A DNA stretch of 64,000 nt from Escherichia coli O127:H6 str. E2348/69. GTDB taxonomy: Bacteria; Pseudomonadota; Gammaproteobacteria; Enterobacterales; Enterobacteriaceae. The stretch is from NCBI RefSeq assembly GCF_000026545.1, contig NC_011601.1; one strand, 5' to 3'. Within the stretch, counting starts at the first letter, position 1, and each line of letters opens with the position of its first letter. Under the pieces are notes generated by a model. It had not been told where the DNA came from. It did no database searches and worked only from the letters and a program-made list of their open reading frames with translations. Below, in pieces: positions 21,512 through 27,506 of the stretch. The position numbers were made by a program, and so were the translations under genes.

Positions 21512-22447
21512 TTATTGAGTGACCAGGATTGAATCGACCAGTTTAAATTCCGGTGCTTTATCCAGCGGGATAACCTTGCCGGATTTCTCAGCGTCAACCA
21601 TCAGCTTCAGACCCGTTGCACCGATATCCGCCGGGTTCTGGGCAACCGTCGCGGTCATTTGTCCGGCTTCCACCATTTTGCGGGCTTCCGGAATTCCATC
21701 TGTACCGACGACCAACACTTTGCCCGTTTTTCCAGCGTTTGCGACTGCCTGAGCAACACCCATTGCCATCGTGTCATTCGCGCAATAGATCGCTTTAATA
21801 TTCGGATTACGTTGCAACACGTTAGTGGCGACATCCAGTGCTTTAATGCGGTCCCAGTCGGCAGGCTGGCTGGCGACAAGCTTGATCTGGCTTGCTTTTT
21901 TGAAGGCTTCGGTGGCACCATTACGACGCGCTTCACCGGAGGCGTTACCGGCTTTACCCTCAATGATTGCGACTTCACCCCCTTCGGCACCCAGCTTGTC
22001 AATAATCAATGACGCGCCTTTCGCCCCGACGGCAACATTATCGGTGGTGACAAAACCTTCCACATTACCGCCTGCTTTTTTCAGATTATCCATGTCGATT
22101 TTTTCATCGAGATTGACCAGATAAATGCCTTTTTTCCATGCGCGGGCAACAGGCATGACCAGGTTCACTGAGGATAATGGTGCGAAGGCGATACCTTTGT
22201 AATTTTTATTACTGAGATCTTCAAATAACTGCAATTGAGATTGAAAATCGCCTTCTGAAGGAGAGGCAAAAATATCAACGCTGACGCCCAGCGTTTTTGC
22301 TTCATCTTCAATGCCTTTTTTCATATCTACCCAAAATGGATTGGAGAGTGTTTTCAATACGACGGCATATTCGGCGGCAGCAAAAGCGCTGGTTGACAAC
22401 ATTAAGCCCACGAGTGTGCCGCTGAAATATTTCAGATATTTATTCAT
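21512..22447 (-). CDS. alsB: D-allose periplasmic binding protein
   Basis: Signal peptide; ribose-binding-protein family; start at MNKYLKYF. Confidence 0.9.
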   Translation of the reverse strand: MNKYLKYFSGTLVGLMLSTSAFAAAEYAVVLKTLSNPFWVDMKKGIEDEAKTLGVSVDIFASPSEGDFQSQLQLFEDLSNKNYKGIAFAPLSSVNLVMPVARAWKKGIYLVNLDEKIDMDNLKKAGGNVEGFVTTDNVAVGAKGASLIIDKLGAEGGEVAIIEGKAGNASGEARRNGATEAFKKASQIKLVASQPADWDRIKALDVATNVLQRNPNIKAIYCANDTMAMGVAQAVANAGKTGKVLVVGTDGIPEARKMVEAGQMTATVAQNPADIGATGLKLMVDAEKSGKVIPLDKAPEFKLVDSILVTQ

Positions 22448-22505
22448 AATCATGTTCTCACGGTAAGGGGAGAGGTAACTCCGCGATGGCGGAATTACCT
22501 TTTTC

Positions 22506-23396
22506 TTATTTCAGCGCGCCTGGTGAGAAGAAATCAACAATTGCGCCGGTTTTTTGCATATTAATATTAGCTTGTTCAATGTTGAGCTGGGCGACAGAGA
22601 CAAAAAACGCGTCCAGCAAAGTCAGTTGTAATATTCTTGCCGAGGCATTACGACCTAATAACGGTGTTTCCGGGGCCGGTGAGCAAATAATATAATCGGC
22701 CAGCTTCGCTATTGGTGAATGATAGCTATGCGTTATACAAATAATCTTTGCCCCGTTCTTTTTTGCCAGTTCTACAGCCGCTTTTACATCACTGGTTCGC
22801 CCGGAATGGGTCACCACCAGCACCACATCTCCTTCCTGTAACAACGAAGCAGACATCATCATGATGTGAGCGTCCGGATAGGCCTGGCAGCGTACGCCAA
22901 TGCGCAAAAACTTGTGCTGTACATCAGCACAGATAGCATTTGATCCTCCGGCACCGTACAAATCCCGCTGTCTGGCCTGATAGAAAAAGCGGGCGGCACG
23001 GTGGATCTCATCAACGTTGACGATCGACTGACCTTCCATAATGGTGCGTAAAGTGATGTTAAATACCTTATTCACCACATCCTGCGGCGCTTCATCAAAA
23101 GCCAACTCGGAAGGCAATACTTGTTCTGACTGAGAAAAATAATCTTCCAGCGCACTGCGTAAGTTACGAAAGCCGCTAAACCCCAGCAGCTTTGATACCT
23201 TAACGATCATCGCTTCAGATACCGCCAGAGCTTCTGCGACATCTTTAATTGCGGGTGCACAACTCAGGTTACCGGGTTTGAGTAACCACTCCACGATGCG
23301 GCTTTCGTTTTCTGTCATTCCTTCCTGCTTCATTCGCAGGTAAGGCGCTAACCCGATACCGTTCGGAAGCGCTGAATCAAACTCTGACTGGCTCAT
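22506..23396 (-). CDS. rpiR: RpiR/AlsR transcriptional repressor (HTH plus SIS domain)
   Basis: Start at MSQSEFDSAL (track extends 11 codons); divergent from rpiB. Confidence 0.88.
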   Translation of the reverse strand: MSQSEFDSALPNGIGLAPYLRMKQEGMTENESRIVEWLLKPGNLSCAPAIKDVAEALAVSEAMIVKVSKLLGFSGFRNLRSALEDYFSQSEQVLPSELAFDEAPQDVVNKVFNITLRTIMEGQSIVNVDEIHRAARFFYQARQRDLYGAGGSNAICADVQHKFLRIGVRCQAYPDAHIMMMSASLLQEGDVVLVVTHSGRTSDVKAAVELAKKNGAKIICITHSYHSPIAKLADYIICSPAPETPLLGRNASARILQLTLLDAFFVSVAQLNIEQANINMQKTGAIVDFFSPGALK

Positions 23397-23749
23397 CACG
23401 TTCTCTTGTCCTTGAATTGAAGACGCCACTATATCACCACAGCAAGAACAGAAAAGATGCTGGCAACTTCACAAAAAAATAAAATTTATAAAGTTTGTTT
23501 TGTTGTGAATAATGGAGAGTGGCTTAAAATTTCATTTAATCACTTTAAAAACATGATGTTATTTGTTTTTCTGGTTTATTGGATGATAGATGTTGCTGGA
23601 TAGTGAGTGTCTTTAACGCTATTGCGCTGCCAGATGTAACTCTGTAAAACAGATCAGGAAGGCGGATTTCATCGATTTTGGGTGTTTTTAATTCATTTAC
23701 ATCACAAATGTTTTTTTATTGTGAAGTTTTGCGCGGGCGGGGAAGATGA

Positions 23750-24199
23750 ATGAAAAAGATTGCATTTGGCTGTGATCATGTCGGTTTCATTTTAAAACAT
23801 GAAATAGTGGCACATTTAGTTGAGCGTGGCGTTGAAGTGATTGATAAAGGAACCTGGTCGTCAGAGCGTACTGATTATCCGCATTACGCCAGTCAAGTCG
23901 CACTGGCCGTTGCTGGCGGAGAGGCTGATGGCGGGATTTTGATTTGTGGCACTGGCGTCGGTATTTCGATAGCGGCGAACAAGTTTGCCGGAATTCGCGC
24001 GGTCGTTTGTAGCGAACCTTATTCCGCGCAACTTTCGCGGCAGCATAACGACACCAACGTGCTGGCTTTTGGTTCAAGAGTGGTTGGCCTCGAACTGGCA
24101 AAAATGATTGTCGATGCGTGGCTGGGCGCACAGTACGAAGGCGGTCGTCATCAACAACGCGTGGAGGCGATTACGGCAATAGAGCAGCGGAGAAATTGA
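23750..24199 (+). CDS. rpiB: Ribose-5-phosphate isomerase B / allose-6-phosphate isomerase
   Basis: 149 aa RpiB/LacAB family. Confidence 0.92.
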   Translation: MKKIAFGCDHVGFILKHEIVAHLVERGVEVIDKGTWSSERTDYPHYASQVALAVAGGEADGGILICGTGVGISIAANKFAGIRAVVCSEPYSAQLSRQHNDTNVLAFGSRVVGLELAKMIVDAWLGAQYEGGRHQQRVEAITAIEQRRN

Positions 24200-24267
24200 G
24201 ATTCATCCACTACTTGCATGGATGAGTAATGACTAATGTGGATAGAGTTTCTTTTTGAGGTTGGCTA

Positions 24268-24597
24268 ATGAAACGCTTTCCGCTATTTCTTTTATTCACC
24301 CTGTTCACGCTGTCCACCGTTCCGGCCCAGGCCGATATTATCGATGACACCATTGGCAATATTCAGCAGGCGATTAACGACGCTTATAACCCTGACCGTG
24401 GGCGAGACTATGAAGATTCGCACGACGACGGCTGGCAGCGTGAAGTGAGCGACGATCGGCGCAGACAATATGACGACCGCCGCCGCCAGTTTGAAGATCG
24501 CCGCAGGCAGCTGGACGATCGCCAGCGCCAGCTGGATCAGGAGCGTCGGCAGCTAGAAGATGAAGAGCGGAGAATGGAAGATGAGTATGGGCGGTGA
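24268..24597 (+). CDS. yjdP: Small secreted, highly charged repeat protein
   Basis: Signal peptide MKRFPLFLLFTLFTLSTVPAQA followed by reiterated DDRRRQ-type repeats. Confidence 0.75.
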   Translation: MKRFPLFLLFTLFTLSTVPAQADIIDDTIGNIQQAINDAYNPDRGRDYEDSHDDGWQREVSDDRRRQYDDRRRQFEDRRRQLDDRQRQLDQERRQLEDEERRMEDEYGR

Positions 24598-24631
24598 TGT
24601 TGAGTTTAGAGCAGGCATCGCCCCTCACCCA

Positions 24632-25390
24632 TCACGCCACCCCAATCTCCATCCCATCAAACCCCGCCTCAAACCCCGACGGCAGTGCGTTTTCCATCAG
24701 CCACGCATCAAACTGGTGGTTGATATGGGTCAGAATCACCCGTGGCGAGCGGATAACCTGATTCAGCGCAAGCACGGTATTTAAATCACAGTGATTACGC
24801 GGTGCATCCTCGCGCGGCGGGTGGCTGCAATCAATCACCATTACCTGCGGCTGATTATTGCGTAAAAATTTCAGCGTTTTTTCCGGCAAGCCAGCGGTGT
24901 CAGACAGCCACGCCACCCGGCTGTGTGCCGTTTCCAGCAGATAACCGAAGGTCAGTTTTGAGTGGTTGAGCGGCAGGGGCGTGACCTGTAACCCCTGTAA
25001 ATCAAACACCACAAACGGTTCCATCGTGTGGCTGAAATCAAGCAGGCCCGGATGTTTAAACAGATCGTCGCAGCCCTGTTCATCCGGCGGGCCGTAGACC
25101 GGGATCTGATCGCCCACGCCCCAGCGCAGCGGAAACAGCCCCTGGACGTGATCCATATGATAATGCGTCAGCAAAAACTGCTGGAACGATCCGGGAGACC
25201 AGCGATCGGCGAGATCGTGCAGCCCGGCGTCGATCAGGGTGATCGCCCCGTTAAACTTCACTACGCCGCTGCACGGCTGGCGGCGATACTGCGGTGAGCG
25301 CAGCGCTCTGACGCAGGCTACGCACTCGCAGCCCCATGCCGGAACGCCCTGTGCGCCGCTGGTGCCGGTGAGCGTGAGGGTCAGGCTCAT
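24632..25390 (-). CDS. phnP: Phosphoribosyl 1,2-cyclic phosphate phosphodiesterase (metallo-beta-lactamase fold)
   Basis: Start at MSLTLTLTG (track extends 16 codons); HxHxDH motif (THYHMDH). Confidence 0.9.
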
Positions 25391-25391
25391 A

Positions 25392-25826
25392 TTACAGCGC
25401 CTTGGTGAAGCGGAAGTGGCTCTGCTCGTAGCCTTCACGCAGGTAAAAACGGTGCGCGTCGTGGCGCTTGACGTTGGTGGAAAGCTCGGTCATTTCGGCC
25501 CCAGCCTGGCGGGCTTCTTCTTCTGCCCATGCCAGTAATTTACTGCCGACGTTCAGACCGCGTGCCTGCGGCATCACCACCAGTTCCTGAATTTCGCCGA
25601 TCCAGTTGACATGATGCAGATGAAACTGCAAATGCAGGCCGATCATGCCGACAACCTCGCCATCCAACAGCGCCAGATGGTAGCGCATATTCGGGTCACG
25701 CAGGTTGGCGTTAAAGCCCACGCGAAACGCCTGGTGGTCAAACTCCGCTTGTTTTAGCTCACAAATCAGCGCGTAAACCGCGTCGGTGTCGTACTGCGTT
25801 GCCGGGCGAAGCTCACAAGCAGGCAT
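25392..25826 (-). CDS. phnO: Aminoalkylphosphonate N-acetyltransferase (GNAT)
   Basis: 144 aa GNAT fold in operon position. Confidence 0.9.
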
Positions 25827-26370
25827 GGTGTTTCTCCTTCTGATGAATCAGCGTCAGCAGCGTGTCGACCGACTGGCGCAGGCTGCCGTCATTATTGAGC
25901 GTAAGACAATCCTGAGGAGTATAGCGGGCAGCGCGCGCCAGCCGGGCGTTAATTTCACTGGCATTTTCACGACCACGGTTTTCCAGGCGCTGGCGCAGGA
26001 TCTCTGGCGAAACCTGTAAACAAACGGGCAGCAGCGCCGATTGATAGCGCGCCCGCGCCTGCGGCAGATGGGCGCGTGAGCCGTTGACCACCACGTCAAA
26101 TCCAGCGTGCAGCCAGAGGTCAATCTCGACGCCGACGCCATAATACAGACCGTTAGCGTGCCAGCTTAAGGCCAGAAGGTTCTGCCCCGCGCGGGTAAAA
26201 AACTCCTGCTCGCTCAGGGCGATATGGTTTTCACTTCCGGCGCTGGCGGCGCGCGTGATGTAGCGATGCGCTACCAGTAGCTGAGTTTGTTCCCGCTGGC
26301 GGAGTTCCGTCAACAGACTGTCTTTTCCGGAGCCAGAGGCCCCCATTAACCAAATCAGTTTTCCCGTCAT
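25813..26370 (-). CDS. phnN: Ribose 1,5-bisphosphate phosphokinase
   Basis: P-loop GASGSGKDS; 185 aa. Confidence 0.9.
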
Positions 26371-27506
26371 CAGAACACCCTTTTACCCTGACGCCAAACG
26401 TGGTCGATATGAATGTGGTTGCCCTTGCGATGCGCCAGCACCAGGTCGGCGCGTTTGCCCTCGCCAATCACCCCACGATCCTGGAGATTCAGTGCCTGGG
26501 CCGGGTTTTTGGTCACCAGCCTCACCGCCTGCGGCAGCGTAAAGCGGTTGCTCTGGTCATCGGCCACGCGAAACGCCGCATCCAGCAGGCTGGCGGGGTA
26601 GTAGTCGGAAGAGAGGATATCCAGCAGGCCAAGCTGCGCCAGTTCACTGGCCGCCACGTTGCCGGAGTGCGAACCGCCGCGCACGATATTCGGCGCGCCC
26701 ATCAGTACGTTCATGCCGTGCTTGCGCGAGGCTTCTGCCGCTTCGAATGTGGTAGGAAATTCGGCGATCACGCTGCCAAGCTGATGGGATTGGGCTACGT
26801 GGGCGTGCGTGGCGTCATCGTGGCTGGCGAGCGCAATGTGTCGCGCGCGGCACATTGCGGCGATGGATTCGCGATTCGGCTGTGACCAGCGTGCGGCGAG
26901 CGCCAGTTGCTCCTCTTCGTACTGTTGCATCTGCGCATCGGTGAGCGAGTATTTGCCCTGATAATATTCACGATATTTTTCGCGGTTGGCGAACTGGCGC
27001 TGGCCCGGTGAGTGATCCATCAGCGACACCAGCGTTACCGGTTCGCGCTGTACCAGTTTTTCAAACAGCGGCAGCGTGGTGTGATGCGGCAGTTCGCAGC
27101 GCAGGTGCAGACGGTGCTCGGCACGGTTGACGCCGCGTTTCTGCGTCTCTTCGATGGCGTTGATCATCTTCTCCAGATTCTCCAGCCGATCGCCGCCGTC
27201 GCGTACATCACCAATCGCCACGGCGTCCAGCACGGTGGTGATGCCGCTCGCCACCATCAGCGCGTCGTGGCTGCTCATCGCCGAGTGGGCAGGCCAGTCA
27301 ACTTTCGGGCGCGGGGTGAAGAATTTATCCAGATTATCGGTATGCAGCTCAATCAGCCCCGGTAGCAGCCAGCCGCCTTCGCCGTCCATTGCTTCTGACA
27401 GGTGACTCTGGCTTTCGGCAAAGGCGCGGATTTCGCCGTCCTGCATCTCCAGAGAACCGTGTACCACCTCGTTTTCCAGCACCAGTTTGACGTTATTGAT
27501 AATCAT
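26370..27506 (-). CDS. phnM: Amidohydrolase-family C-P lyase pathway enzyme
   Basis: 378 aa amidohydrolase-family protein. Confidence 0.9.

Follow-up and report, generated by a model that had tools for sequence, protein, structure and literature searches.

YjdP of Escherichia coli E2348/69: a small repeat protein with a predicted salt-bridged helix and a candidate RcsB box upstream of its gene

Introduction

The 64,000-nucleotide stretch of the E. coli O127:H6 strain E2348/69 genome analysed here, referred to below as the window, carries a short open reading frame whose product is largely composed of DDRRRQ-type repeats. The locus raises the question of what kind of protein such a sequence encodes, whether its repeat number varies between strains and under which circumstances the gene might be used. 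The open reading frame at 24268-24597 is the already annotated yjdP and represents no new kind of object. The reading that we favour, and to which we give a probability of roughly 0.5, is that YjdP is an exported protein built around a salt-bridged helix, made from its own RcsB-activated promoter and acting as a periplasmic part of the Rcs response.

Results

The open reading frame is 100% identical to yjdP of E2348/69, whose annotation places the gene between rpiB and phnP, with the end of the phn operon convergent with it, its orthologous position in E. coli genomes. The product matches the NCBIfam equivalog model NF041443 ('DDRRRQL repeat protein YjdP') with an E value of 2e-43 and 146.8 bits against a cutoff of 90, in a full-length alignment of residues 1-103 to model positions 1-101 of 101, and the Pfam family PF28054 (YjdP) is precomputed on all close homologues. 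The score above the equivalog cutoff and the orthologous position together assign the protein to this family (NF041443 / PF28054). The initial annotation had named the open reading frame YjdP and quoted its sequence exactly, and both the model match and the annotation of E2348/69 bear the name out. K-12 YjdP is 98% identical, the E2348/69 allele differing at L13F and R52H only. Of 5,426 complete E. coli genomes, 5,404 carry the gene, which also has orthologues in Shigella, E. albertii, E. fergusonii, Citrobacter, Klebsiella sp., Buttiauxella, Entomohabitans and Cronobacter.

Measured against Citrobacter, the mature protein has a dN/dS of 0.03-0.06 with synonymous sites saturated and, judging by these substitution rates, yjdP is under strong purifying selection. 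It is dispensable in the laboratory, since it lies inside a 68.5-kb deletion in the reduced strain DGF-298, is interrupted by IS1 in strain FLI21 and gives no megablast match in 22 complete E. coli genomes. Such dispensability would suit the view that the open reading frame is fortuitous and its repeats a DNA element (REP-like or regulatory), or else that yjdP encodes an Arg-rich binder of nucleic acids located in the cytoplasm, and some names given to relatives ('RNase H-like nuclease', 'Skp family chaperone', 'membrane protein involved in colicin uptake') could be read in the same direction. This view is already largely refuted and we regard it as very improbable indeed: besides the strong purifying selection at saturated synonymous change, all genera keep the ATG, the Shine-Dalgarno sequence and the signal peptide, Rfam gives no match, and every Arg is charge-paired in a protein that is net acidic. 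The automatic names contradict one another and are based on charged coiled-coil composition, while the best Pfam and PDB matches are weak and fall below threshold.

Among the candidates set aside were Pfam DUF7900 (E 0.029), which is sub-threshold, and two sets of compositional matches rejected as homology, namely the NCBIfam secondary matches FlbB, RNase Y and MutS2 and the PDB matches to tropomyosin, GCN4 and designed coiled coils (E >= 0.03). A 3-nt deletion that alignment spans had implied for O157:H7 yjdP was also rejected, the annotated gene there being 330 nt long. PADLOC returned 0 matches, and the Rfam search covered 22000-27000 at E <= 1. The 34-nt gap between yjdP and phnP contains no significant hairpin (z -1.7), and two terminator-like matches inside the repeats, on the minus strand, occur at the chance rate. 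The features discussed below are collected in Table 1.

Table 1 Features of the yjdP locus, in positions of the window
Feature	Position	Strand	Basis
Candidate RcsB box TGAGATTCATCCAC	24197..24210	+	Cross-genus conservation; consensus fit
-10-like hexamer TAATGT	24234..24239	+	T, A and final T invariant in 11-locus alignment; 23 nt after box
Shine-Dalgarno GAGG	24257..24260	+	7 nt 5' of ATG, read from sequence
yjdP coding sequence	24268..24597	+	Open reading frame list; ATG start, 109 codons + stop
Signal peptide, residues 1-22 (MKRFPLFLLFTLFTLSTVPAQA)	24268..24333	+	n/h/c regions, A-x-A; predicted cleavage before Asp23
9-nt repeat (TTCACCCTG TTCACGCTG TCCACC; Leu-Phe-Thr units) in signal-peptide hydrophobic core	24295..24318	+	Tandem Repeats Finder, period 9, 2.7 copies
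Putative amphipathic helix, residues 23-40 (DIIDDTIGNIQQAINDAY)	24334..24387	+	Conservation, hydrophobic moment, AlphaFold2
Acidic linker, residues 41-61 (NPDRGRDYEDSHDDGWQREVS), net charge -4	24388..24450	+	AlphaFold2 coil at 41-53, low pLDDT
Predicted heptad-repeat helix, residues 62-109 (DDRRRQ-hydrophobic, 6.9 units)	24451..24594	+	Tandem Repeats Finder, 21-nt period; AlphaFold2

Read directly from the sequence rather than with a dedicated predictor, the N terminus has the features of a Sec signal peptide for signal peptidase I: MKR is followed by a 15-residue hydrophobic core (FPLFLLFTLFTLSTV) and by P-A-Q-A, then D. Ala22 and Asp23 are invariant across genera (22 sequences), and the dN/dS of the signal peptide is 0.3-0.75 as against 0.03-0.06 for the mature part, so that the residues at the cleavage site are fixed while the rest drifts. 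YjdP contains no Cys and hence no lipobox. Sec-dependent export with cleavage after Ala22 is thus probable, and the clear signal peptide noted in the initial annotation is upheld by the conserved n, h and c regions and the invariant A22/D23.

The hydrophobic core of this signal peptide also contains the only unstable repeat in yjdP, a 9-nt unit that the initial annotation did not mention. At least three perfect TTCACGCTG units are present in 532 complete E. coli genomes (~10%), with alleles of 3, 4, 5, 6 and 7 units in up to 61, 41, 296, 108 and 18-19 genomes, respectively. These perfect tandem units with several copy-number alleles constitute a variable-number tandem repeat (VNTR). Many of the multi-copy alleles belong to ST131, and the number of units differs among records labelled ST131; examples of the longer products have 112, 118 and 121 aa (loci L004, L003 and L023). 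Because both repeat units of the gene (9 and 21 nt) are divisible by three, changes in their number remain in frame, and all alleles read do so, which is not the behaviour of an on/off, phase-variable contingency locus.

The mature protein comprises 87 residues, 54% of them charged, with a net charge of -9, and falls into three parts. Its N-terminal segment is among the most conserved, with D23, I24, I25, D26, I29, G30, N31, I32, Q33, A35, D38 and A39 invariant across genera, and its hydrophobic residues recur at i, i+4, i+7 and i+11 (hydrophobic moment 0.52); AlphaFold2 predicts it as helical at a pLDDT of only 60-70. The acidic linker that follows differs between genera in both length and sequence.

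The third and largest part, at residues 62-109, consists of the heptads DDRRRQY, DDRRRQF, EDRRRQL, DDRQRQL, DQERRQL, EDEERRM and the terminal EDEYGR. The dominance of Asp/Glu- and Arg/Gln-rich repeats in the mature protein, as first described for this locus, is clear from this series, and the direct repeats reported in the DNA at about 24440..24560 are recovered by Tandem Repeats Finder as a 21-nt period (24451-24536, 4.1 copies, 75% matches) and by a repeat search as 42-nt units spaced 21 nt apart with 71% mutual identity. AlphaFold2 predicts residues 54-108 of the monomer as a single helix, with a pLDDT of 87-98 over 61-109, in keeping with the extended charged helix suggested in the initial annotation; this one-chain model has a pTM of 0.37, and its pLDDT is 55-70 in the N-terminal part. 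Over residues 62-109, opposite charges are paired at i/i+3 or i/i+4 in 36 instances and like charges in only 2. None of 5000 shuffled sequences reached 36 (mean 21.5 +/- 3.4), and the charge and heptad pattern of YjdP exceeds chance.

Superimposed on the charge pattern is a narrow hydrophobic seam. Six of the eight hydrophobic residues in the last 52 share one heptad register, and all 14 of the diverse family members examined, ranging from Escherichia to Cronobacter, have this register in common. The seam reads Y-F-L-L-L-M in E2348/69 and Y-F/L-L-L-L-M/L with a preceding Q in the family, and the hydrophobic residue and its preceding Gln are the most invariant repeat residues across genera. The heptad region has a dN/dS of 0.035-0.04, the lowest in yjdP. 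With the seam placed at d, the a positions are occupied by R, R, R, Q, R and E, so the heptad periodicity of a canonical coiled coil is present while hydrophobic residues at both a and d are not. The Arg and Gln at a disfavour a canonical homodimer.

These features also bring into consideration a monomeric single α-helix (SAH) of the ER/K-like type, which would serve only as a stiff, charged periplasmic spacer or ruler that keeps the conserved N-terminal helix at a set distance, and would form no oligomers. A long predicted helix in which opposite charges at i/i+3 and i/i+4 are very dense, and like-charge pairs nearly absent, is what such a domain would show, and AlphaFold2 gives this helix as uninterrupted and unpacked against any partner, at very high confidence; the Arg and Gln at a would in addition make a poor coiled-coil core. 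However, a classical SAH is without a seam, and the conserved seam with its preceding Gln is hard to explain in these terms. Nor would a spacer be expected to need a constant number of units, whereas 99.6% of E. coli have the same number. We regard the monomeric spacer as a possible but minority explanation.

The constancy in unit number is at odds with the expectation, raised when the repeats were first noted, that they would be prone to repeat-number variation. The heptad region is colinear with the window in 5,380 of the 5,404 complete E. coli genomes that carry yjdP (99.6%), and a junction-specific search found a clean 21-nt deletion, leaving one unit fewer and a product of 102 aa, in 16 complete genomes. 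Within E. coli the heptad repeats do not behave as a VNTR and their number is essentially fixed. Slippage is not favoured because the units are only ~71% identical in DNA. The number does differ between species, one E. albertii sequence having two extra heptads (123 aa). It can be argued from the constraint on heptad number that the length of the helix matters. The 102-aa allele was not found in a systematic genome sample; it is frequent in a wider contig collection, though rare in complete genomes.

Conservation extends upstream of the gene. The genes that precede yjdP vary (rpiB, genes for a hybrid kinase, a nitroreductase or a transporter, or one that is divergent and 334 nt distant), and despite this the similarity between loci starts at a candidate RcsB box, the first three bases of which are the rpiB stop codon in the window. 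The pattern TG[AG]GA-N4-TC[CT]NC is present 70-73 nt 5' of the ATG at 12 of 12 loci from at least seven genera, whichever gene lies upstream. In an 11-locus alignment the only invariant upstream positions are those of the box region (TTG-GA-T--TC--CT) and of a TAnnnT hexamer. The RcsB box consensus is TN(G/A)GAN4TC(T/C)NA (PMC7913699). The candidate box fits it at 7 of 8 specified positions, the last base being an invariant C rather than A, and varies between genera only at the degenerate positions. Allowing up to one mismatch, the RcsB pattern occurs 18 times in the 64-kb window, fewer than in shuffled sequences; since a motif match is weak on its own for this reason, the argument rests on conservation and position.

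Transcription of yjdP is predicted to start near 24246 and, assuming this start, the box would lie at about -49..-36. A sigma-70 consensus scan found no promoter upstream of yjdP, as would be expected if the promoter had a poor -35 element and relied on an activator. GAGG, GAGA or GGAG is found at the place of the Shine-Dalgarno sequence in other genera. The rprA site, ATTGAGACGAATCTGA, lies at -53..-33, and the box of Salmonella osmC is TGAGATTTATCCTA (PMC7913699). Taken together, this cross-genus footprint suggests that yjdP is a direct RcsB target.

Published expression data are consistent with such a role. Treatment with a LolCDE inhibitor raises yjdP 9.5- and 10.6-fold, along with rcsA, wca, osmB and ivy (PMC5105897). 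In imipenem, yjdP rises from 478 to 672 (only 1.4-fold, a point against strong Rcs control) as the upstream rpiB falls from 96 to 61, and the Rcs gene ivy is up 1.36-fold (PMC6286996 Table S2). An acid-resistance study places yjdP in a table of genes bound and repressed by a regulator (PMC5217608). The gene is absent from the supplementary tables of further expression studies, and the searchable literature yielded no report of it as a member of the Rcs regulon or of rcsB dependence or binding, nor any demonstration that the protein is exported and cleaved. The initial annotation was prepared to be abandoned if the repeats were fixed and expression undetectable; because published RNA-seq does detect yjdP, that combination does not arise.

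The same data leave room for the upstream block to serve a different regulator, or to be a promoter UP or -35-proximal element, rather than to bind an RcsB homodimer. Candidates would be heterodimers of RcsB with RcsA, GadE, BglJ or MatA, another LuxR/FixJ-type protein, or, for the response to Lol inhibition, Cpx, sigma-E or sigma-S. At the end of the right half-site an invariant C precedes a T, a departure from the homodimer consensus, and the LolCDE inhibitor also induces cpxP, degP, spy-type and sigma-S genes, with Cpx and other responses among those raised (PMC5105897); the entry of yjdP in the binding table of an acid-resistance regulator points the same way. On the other hand, the left half, ATTGAGA, is identical to that of the rprA site that has been crystallised, the distance from the box to the -10-like hexamer would, given the predicted start, reproduce the -49..-36 geometry of rprA, and, by eye, no CpxR (GTAAA-N5-GTAAA) or sigma-E (GGAACTT-N16-TCTGA) element is conserved in the alignment. 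We consider a different regulator or element somewhat unlikely, and RcsB remains the activator in the reading we prefer.

Expression and composition together might also suggest a protectant of the hydrophilin/LEA-like or polyampholyte kind. It would have little order in dilute solution and would be made under desiccation or osmotic stress as a non-specific shield of envelope components, or else it would change state when its Asp and Glu residues are protonated at low pH. More than half of the mature residues are charged (the 54% given above), yjdP is co-induced with colanic-acid and osmotic/desiccation genes, and its place in the acid-resistance regulator list would fit as well, in that acidification of the periplasm would be expected to break Asp-Arg bridges. 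Conservation, however, is residue-specific, with a dN/dS of ~0.04 in the repeats and each heptad keeping its own hydrophobic residue, and the helix is predicted with high confidence. Hydrophilins were reportedly defined, by Garay-Arroyo et al. in 2000, by a glycine content >6% and very high hydrophilicity; glycine makes up 4 of the 87 mature residues of YjdP (4.6%), below that value. A protectant of this kind is in our view quite unlikely.

Discussion

We tentatively propose the following account of how YjdP might act. Encoded by a genuine, stand-alone gene, the small protein would be exported by the Sec machinery and cleaved after Ala22, leaving a mature form with an amphipathic N-terminal helix, a flexible acidic linker and a C-terminal helix of ~55 residues (~80 A). 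In each heptad Asp/Glu and Arg are spaced by three or four residues, so that salt bridges within the helix would make it stiffer. The one invariant Tyr, Phe, Leu or Met per heptad, placed after Gln, would form a single narrow seam that may serve as a docking surface, either for self-association or for a partner protein; in the former case a leucine-zipper-like register could apply, with Leu at d, an acidic residue at e and Arg at g. Expression would be driven from the gene's own promoter, and its putative activator would be RcsB, occupying roughly -49 to -36 in the manner of rprA. Envelope damage, for instance stress on lipoprotein trafficking or on peptidoglycan, would then lead to synthesis of YjdP, which would play its part in the Rcs response from the periplasm. 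The steps that we infer are the export and cleavage of YjdP, the dependence of its gene on RcsB, its oligomerisation or docking, and whatever protective role it may have.

A more speculative extension, which we think improbable, would make YjdP a dedicated Rcs effector with an Asp-Arg 'charge-zipper' switch that responds to pH or ionic conditions, a Gln-Leu seam for docking on an envelope partner and, in some strains, a long signal-peptide core that anchors the protein in the inner membrane. If this were true, a helix or oligomer would become an unfolded polycation as periplasmic pH or ionic strength changes, and lengthening of the core from 15 to 24-30 residues (in ~10% of E. coli, many of them ST131) would turn a soluble periplasmic protein into an uncleaved, inner-membrane-anchored one. 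Lengthening of the signal core would then amount to a heritable and rapidly changing relocation of a stress protein.

The finding is largely ordinary, in that NCBIfam and Pfam already have names for both gene and repeat. What is added here is modest but testable, and none of it overturns current understanding. The putative RcsB footprint would give an orphan 'y-gene' a regulatory context, that of envelope damage, and with it a short list of phenotypes. In a major clinical lineage the signal-peptide core is lengthened by the in-frame 9-nt VNTR, which could provide a typing marker and could also represent a natural experiment relating h-region length to export.

YjdP displays individual features of several known systems. 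ER/K-type SAH domains occur in myosin VI/X and caldesmon. YjdP shares with them a long isolated helix, dense i/i+3 and i/i+4 pairs and the lack of a globular core, but uses Asp, Arg and Gln rather than Glu and Lys, carries a hydrophobic seam, and is bacterial and predicted to be periplasmic. The seven-residue period is common to the leucine zippers (GCN4 and tropomyosin, PDB matches at E 0.03-0.55) and to Lpp. If Leu is placed at d, the first four heptads of YjdP have an acidic residue at e and Arg at g, an arrangement that would give attractive g-e' pairs in parallel dimers. It differs from both in having Arg and Gln at a and in lacking sequence homology, and it is not a lipoprotein, having no Cys. 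TolA domain II and Skp/OmpH resemble YjdP in their charged, helix-prone, periplasmic composition; neither gives a significant family match, and the names carried by relatives of YjdP derive from composition only.

The candidate yjdP box has in common with the rprA site the left half ATTGAGA and the N4 spacing, and with the predicted start it would also have the -49..-36 placement; it is identical to the Salmonella osmC box at 12 of 14 bases. It differs from both of these RcsB boxes in its last base, which is C in every genus.

Identity and conservation of yjdP

The initial annotation had recognised YjdP at this locus, and translation of the ORF gives exactly the 109-residue protein that it quoted. 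Bases 24150-24700 are 100% identical to E. coli E2348/69, the RefSeq annotation of the ORF is yjdP, and the curated NCBIfam equivalog NF041443 ('DDRRRQL repeat protein YjdP') is matched over the entire model (E 2e-43, 146.8 bits, cutoff 90), with Pfam PF28054 ('YjdP') recorded on relatives. The product counts as a full YjdP family member, already named and without an assigned function; the original finding is correct but already known.

A megablast match to yjdP is present in 5,404 of 5,426 complete E. coli genomes, and orthologues occur in Shigella, E. albertii, E. fergusonii, several Citrobacter species, a Klebsiella sp., Buttiauxella, Entomohabitans and Cronobacter dublinensis. When 1.84 billion representatives were searched exhaustively with a profile, only 57 clusters passed E <= 0.001, many of them fragments and the weakest being unrelated long coiled-coil proteins, which indicates a family that is narrow and patchy within Enterobacteriaceae. 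Searches for an Rfam match, a PDB relative and a defence-system model gave none. The close relatives P0003, P0037, P0177 and P0179 bear automatic names from one source ('RNase H-like nuclease', 'Skp family chaperone', 'membrane protein involved in colicin uptake') that contradict one another and appear to be artefacts of charged coiled-coil composition.

Comparison of E. coli with Citrobacter shows saturation at synonymous sites (dS at least 1.3) and a dN/dS of 0.03-0.06 for mature YjdP, 0.035-0.04 for the heptad repeat and 0.3-0.75 for the signal peptide, fast drift being the usual behaviour of signal peptides. Conservation is residue-specific, with each heptad keeping its hydrophobic residue (Y, F/L, L, L, L, M/L) and the preceding Gln. 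yjdP is a real gene, and the alternative of a non-functional ORF is effectively excluded. The signal peptide first proposed for YjdP has standard regions (n, MKR; h, FPLFLLFTLFTLSTV; c, PAQA|D), with Ala22 and Asp23 invariant across genera, and we place the probability that YjdP is both real and, as predicted, exported at roughly 0.9. The gene is dispensable in the laboratory, since the 68.5-kb deletion of the reduced strain DGF-298 includes it, an IS1X2 element interrupts it in E. coli FLI21 (L024:574-1679), and 22 complete E. coli genomes have no megablast match to the query.

Four matches in the E. coli search lie on records classed as plasmids. Between E. coli and E. fergusonii (24268-24597 versus L014:4001-4330), 39 of 52 synonymous sites in yjdP differ, a saturated divergence as large as that between E. 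coli and Citrobacter, which may point to an ancient allele or to the locus having been replaced horizontally.

Repeat-number variation

The direct repeats reported at the DNA level are recovered by Tandem Repeats Finder as a 21-nt period of 4.1 copies at 24451-24536, and a repeat search finds 42-nt units spaced 21 nt that are ~71% identical to each other. The accompanying expectation, that these acidic/basic repeats are prone to repeat-number variation, proved largely wrong when the proposed comparison across strains was run on E. coli genomes. Using short diagnostic queries and E-value limits strict enough to pass only one colinear alignment, we found the window's 130-nt heptad region to be colinear in 5,380 genomes. 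Another 16 have cleanly lost one 21-nt unit (102 aa; L009-L011), and of those left over one has yjdP interrupted by IS1. Within E. coli, then, the number of heptads is all but fixed. Heptad number does change between species: a 42-nt duplication brings one E. albertii sequence to 123 aa, and variants of 97 to 108 aa are rare in the wider collection.

The unstable repeat of yjdP is not the heptad but a 9-nt unit in the signal peptide. In the window the array reads TTCACCCTG-TTCACGCTG-TCCACC (period 9, 2.7 copies), with only two units, which are imperfect. Perfect TTCACGCTG arrays of at least three units are present in 532 of 5,426 complete E. coli genomes (9.8%), as at L003:446-490, L004:446-472 and L023:365-418. 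Alleles of three (112 aa), four (115 aa), five (118 aa), six (121 aa) and seven units (124 aa) occur in 36-61, 41, 296, 108 and 18-19 genomes respectively, those of four and seven units having been found with synthetic queries and their lengths computed from unit number. Records labelled O25b:H4-ST131 include 3, 4, 6 and 7 units, so that copy number seems to shift inside one sequence type. As all alleles are in frame, the array is not an on/off switch. Expansion lengthens the hydrophobic core from 15 to up to 30 residues, and very long h-regions can impair signal-peptide cleavage and act as membrane anchors.

Rearrangements around the locus

In the window, rpiB lies 68 nt upstream of yjdP and the convergent phnP 34 nt away (24598-24631), versus 146 nt in K-12 (L001:1949-2094) and most other strains, the longer gap holding an extra ~112 bp (match spans 663 versus 551). 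In a published survey the K-12 gap contains a G-quadruplex/hairpin repeat element (PMC5100583), and we found no significant hairpin or terminator in the 34-nt gap. The short stretch that separates yjdP from the phn operon is a hot spot for insertions. In EHEC/O157, the OI167 island replaces the als-rpiB region (PMC10128022); similarity breaks inside yjdP at about codon 9 (L005:1365-1520, L025; compare L016:3881-4033), and the promoter region and first residues (MKRHSTLF...) differ from those of K-12. The gene immediately upstream in C. europaeus is also a hybrid kinase. Judged from these sequences, OI167 apparently carried in a yjdP 5' end of its own and recombined inside the gene.

Positions of features at yjdP loci (window coordinates unless a comparison locus is named)
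Feature	Position	Strand	Description
yjdP ORF	24268-24597	+	109 residues
9-nt in-frame repeat	24295-24318	+	TTCACGCTG (Leu-Phe-Thr), hydrophobic core of signal peptide; Tandem Repeats Finder
TGA stop within box	24197-24199		rpiB stop; box 24197-24210
TGA stop within box	L005:1414-1416		EHEC/O157
TGA stop within box	L016:3929-3931		C. europaeus
TGA stop within box	L014:3931-3933		E. fergusonii
TGA stop within box	L021:2928-2930		Klebsiella sp.
yjdP-phn insertion	L012:4327-4862		C. farmeri, ParE/Phd pair
yjdP-phn insertion	L016:4487-5157		C. europaeus, HigB/HTH pair
yjdP-phn insertion	L006:1818-2156		E. coli R32_14_1F, low-molecular-weight tyrosine phosphatase, with phn decay
yjdP-phn insertion	L021:3315-4189		Klebsiella sp., two CBRB-domain genes

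A candidate Rcs-controlled promoter

Depending on the locus, yjdP is preceded by rpiB, a hybrid histidine kinase, a nitroreductase, a transporter or a divergent gene 334 nt away, and followed by phnP, toxin-antitoxin pairs, phnH or yjdN. Despite these differing neighbours, similarity between loci starts at one point, a box TG[AG]GA-N4-TC[CT]NC located 70-73 nt before the ATG in 12 of 12 loci examined. Across an 11-locus alignment, the only invariant upstream positions fall in the box region and in a TAnnnT hexamer 23 nt past it. Whenever the gene directly upstream is rpiB or the hybrid kinase, the first three box bases are that gene's TGA stop codon; with any other upstream gene the box lies free between genes. 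The overlapping stop codons indicate that rearrangements reached the edge of the box but not its inside.

The box fits 7 of 8 specified positions of the RcsB box TN(G/A)GAN4TC(T/C)NA, structurally defined in Salmonella (PMC7913699); differences between genera fall at degenerate positions, and the last base is C in every genus, off consensus. Its left half and flank, ATTGAGA, are identical to the crystallised rprA site ATTGAGACGAATCTGA (-53 to -33), and the box agrees with the Salmonella osmC box TGAGATTTATCCTA at 12 of 14 bases. If the conserved hexamer, TAATGT in the window (24234-24239), is the -10 element, the box would lie at about -49 to -36, the same geometry as in rprA. The promoter looks like those of rprA and osmC, making yjdP a candidate member of the Rcs regulon. 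With one mismatch allowed the pattern is a common one, with 18 matches in the 64-kb window, fewer than in shuffles, and a sigma-70 scan returned no promoter.

Published transcriptomes fit Rcs control. After 30 min of LolCDE inhibition yjdP rises 9.5- and 10.6-fold, in a table that also holds rcsA, wca genes, yjbEG and osmC, and the authors report induction of Rcs-associated genes (PMC5105897). Imipenem raises yjdP from 478 to 672 normalised counts and the Rcs gene ivy 1.36-fold, while rpiB falls from 96 to 61 (PMC6286996 Table S2), which argues against simple read-through from rpiB. A regulator other than RcsB might act at the box, as Cpx and sigma-S genes, too, respond to the Lol inhibitor (PMC5105897); we consider RcsB somewhat the better-favoured candidate. 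Separately, a ChIP/expression study of acid resistance lists yjdP among one regulator's top repressed genes, with a 'genic' binding position (PMC5217608).

Predicted structure and relation to known helices

Charged residues make up 54% of the 87 in mature YjdP, whose net charge is -9; one alternative reading is a hydrophilin-like or pH-responsive polyampholyte. The first 18 mature residues, DIIDDTIGNIQQAINDAY, are amphipathic and a/d-patterned and rank with the best-conserved stretches of the family. Residues 62-109 run DDRRRQY / DDRRRQF / EDRRRQL / DDRQRQL / DQERRQL / EDEERRM / EDEYGR and contain 36 opposite-charge and only 2 like-charge i/i+3 and i/i+4 pairs, versus 21.5 +/- 3.4 opposite-charge pairs in shuffles of the same residues (0 of 5000 reach 36), so the pattern is not chance. 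The extended charged helix anticipated by the initial annotation reappears in an AlphaFold2 model built with a 22-sequence alignment, which places the signal peptide and residues 23-40 in helix, 41-53 in coil and 54-108 in an unbroken helix (pLDDT 87-98 over residues 61-109; overall pTM 0.37), and the tail is very probably a long helix.

Almost every hydrophobic residue in the tail occupies a single heptad register, giving a seam at d with Gln at c, Asp/Glu at e, Arg/Gln at a, and Arg at g in the first four heptads. We envisage a helix of ~80 A, stiffened by salt bridges, whose Gln-Leu seam might serve as a docking surface for YjdP itself or a partner, although such docking is tentative. We propose that envelope damage would activate RcsB, that yjdP would be transcribed from its own promoter and its product exported by Sec to the periplasm, and that the N-terminal helix and long charged helix could there engage YjdP itself or an envelope partner; our confidence in any particular protective role is low. 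The RcsB-like box offers a new lead on regulation, and together with the signal-peptide array is a side result of modest interest that is easy to test.

The tail thereby combines features of two known helix classes. YjdP shares with single alpha-helices (SAHs) their hallmark of dense intrahelical salt bridges, yet the rival reading of the repeat as a pure SAH spacer meets a conserved hydrophobic seam that excludes a textbook SAH. Leu at d and the e/g charge complementarity are hallmarks of the leucine zipper, but the a positions, being charged, rule out a textbook coiled coil. YjdP is partly SAH-like and partly leucine-zipper-like, and fails one defining feature of each.
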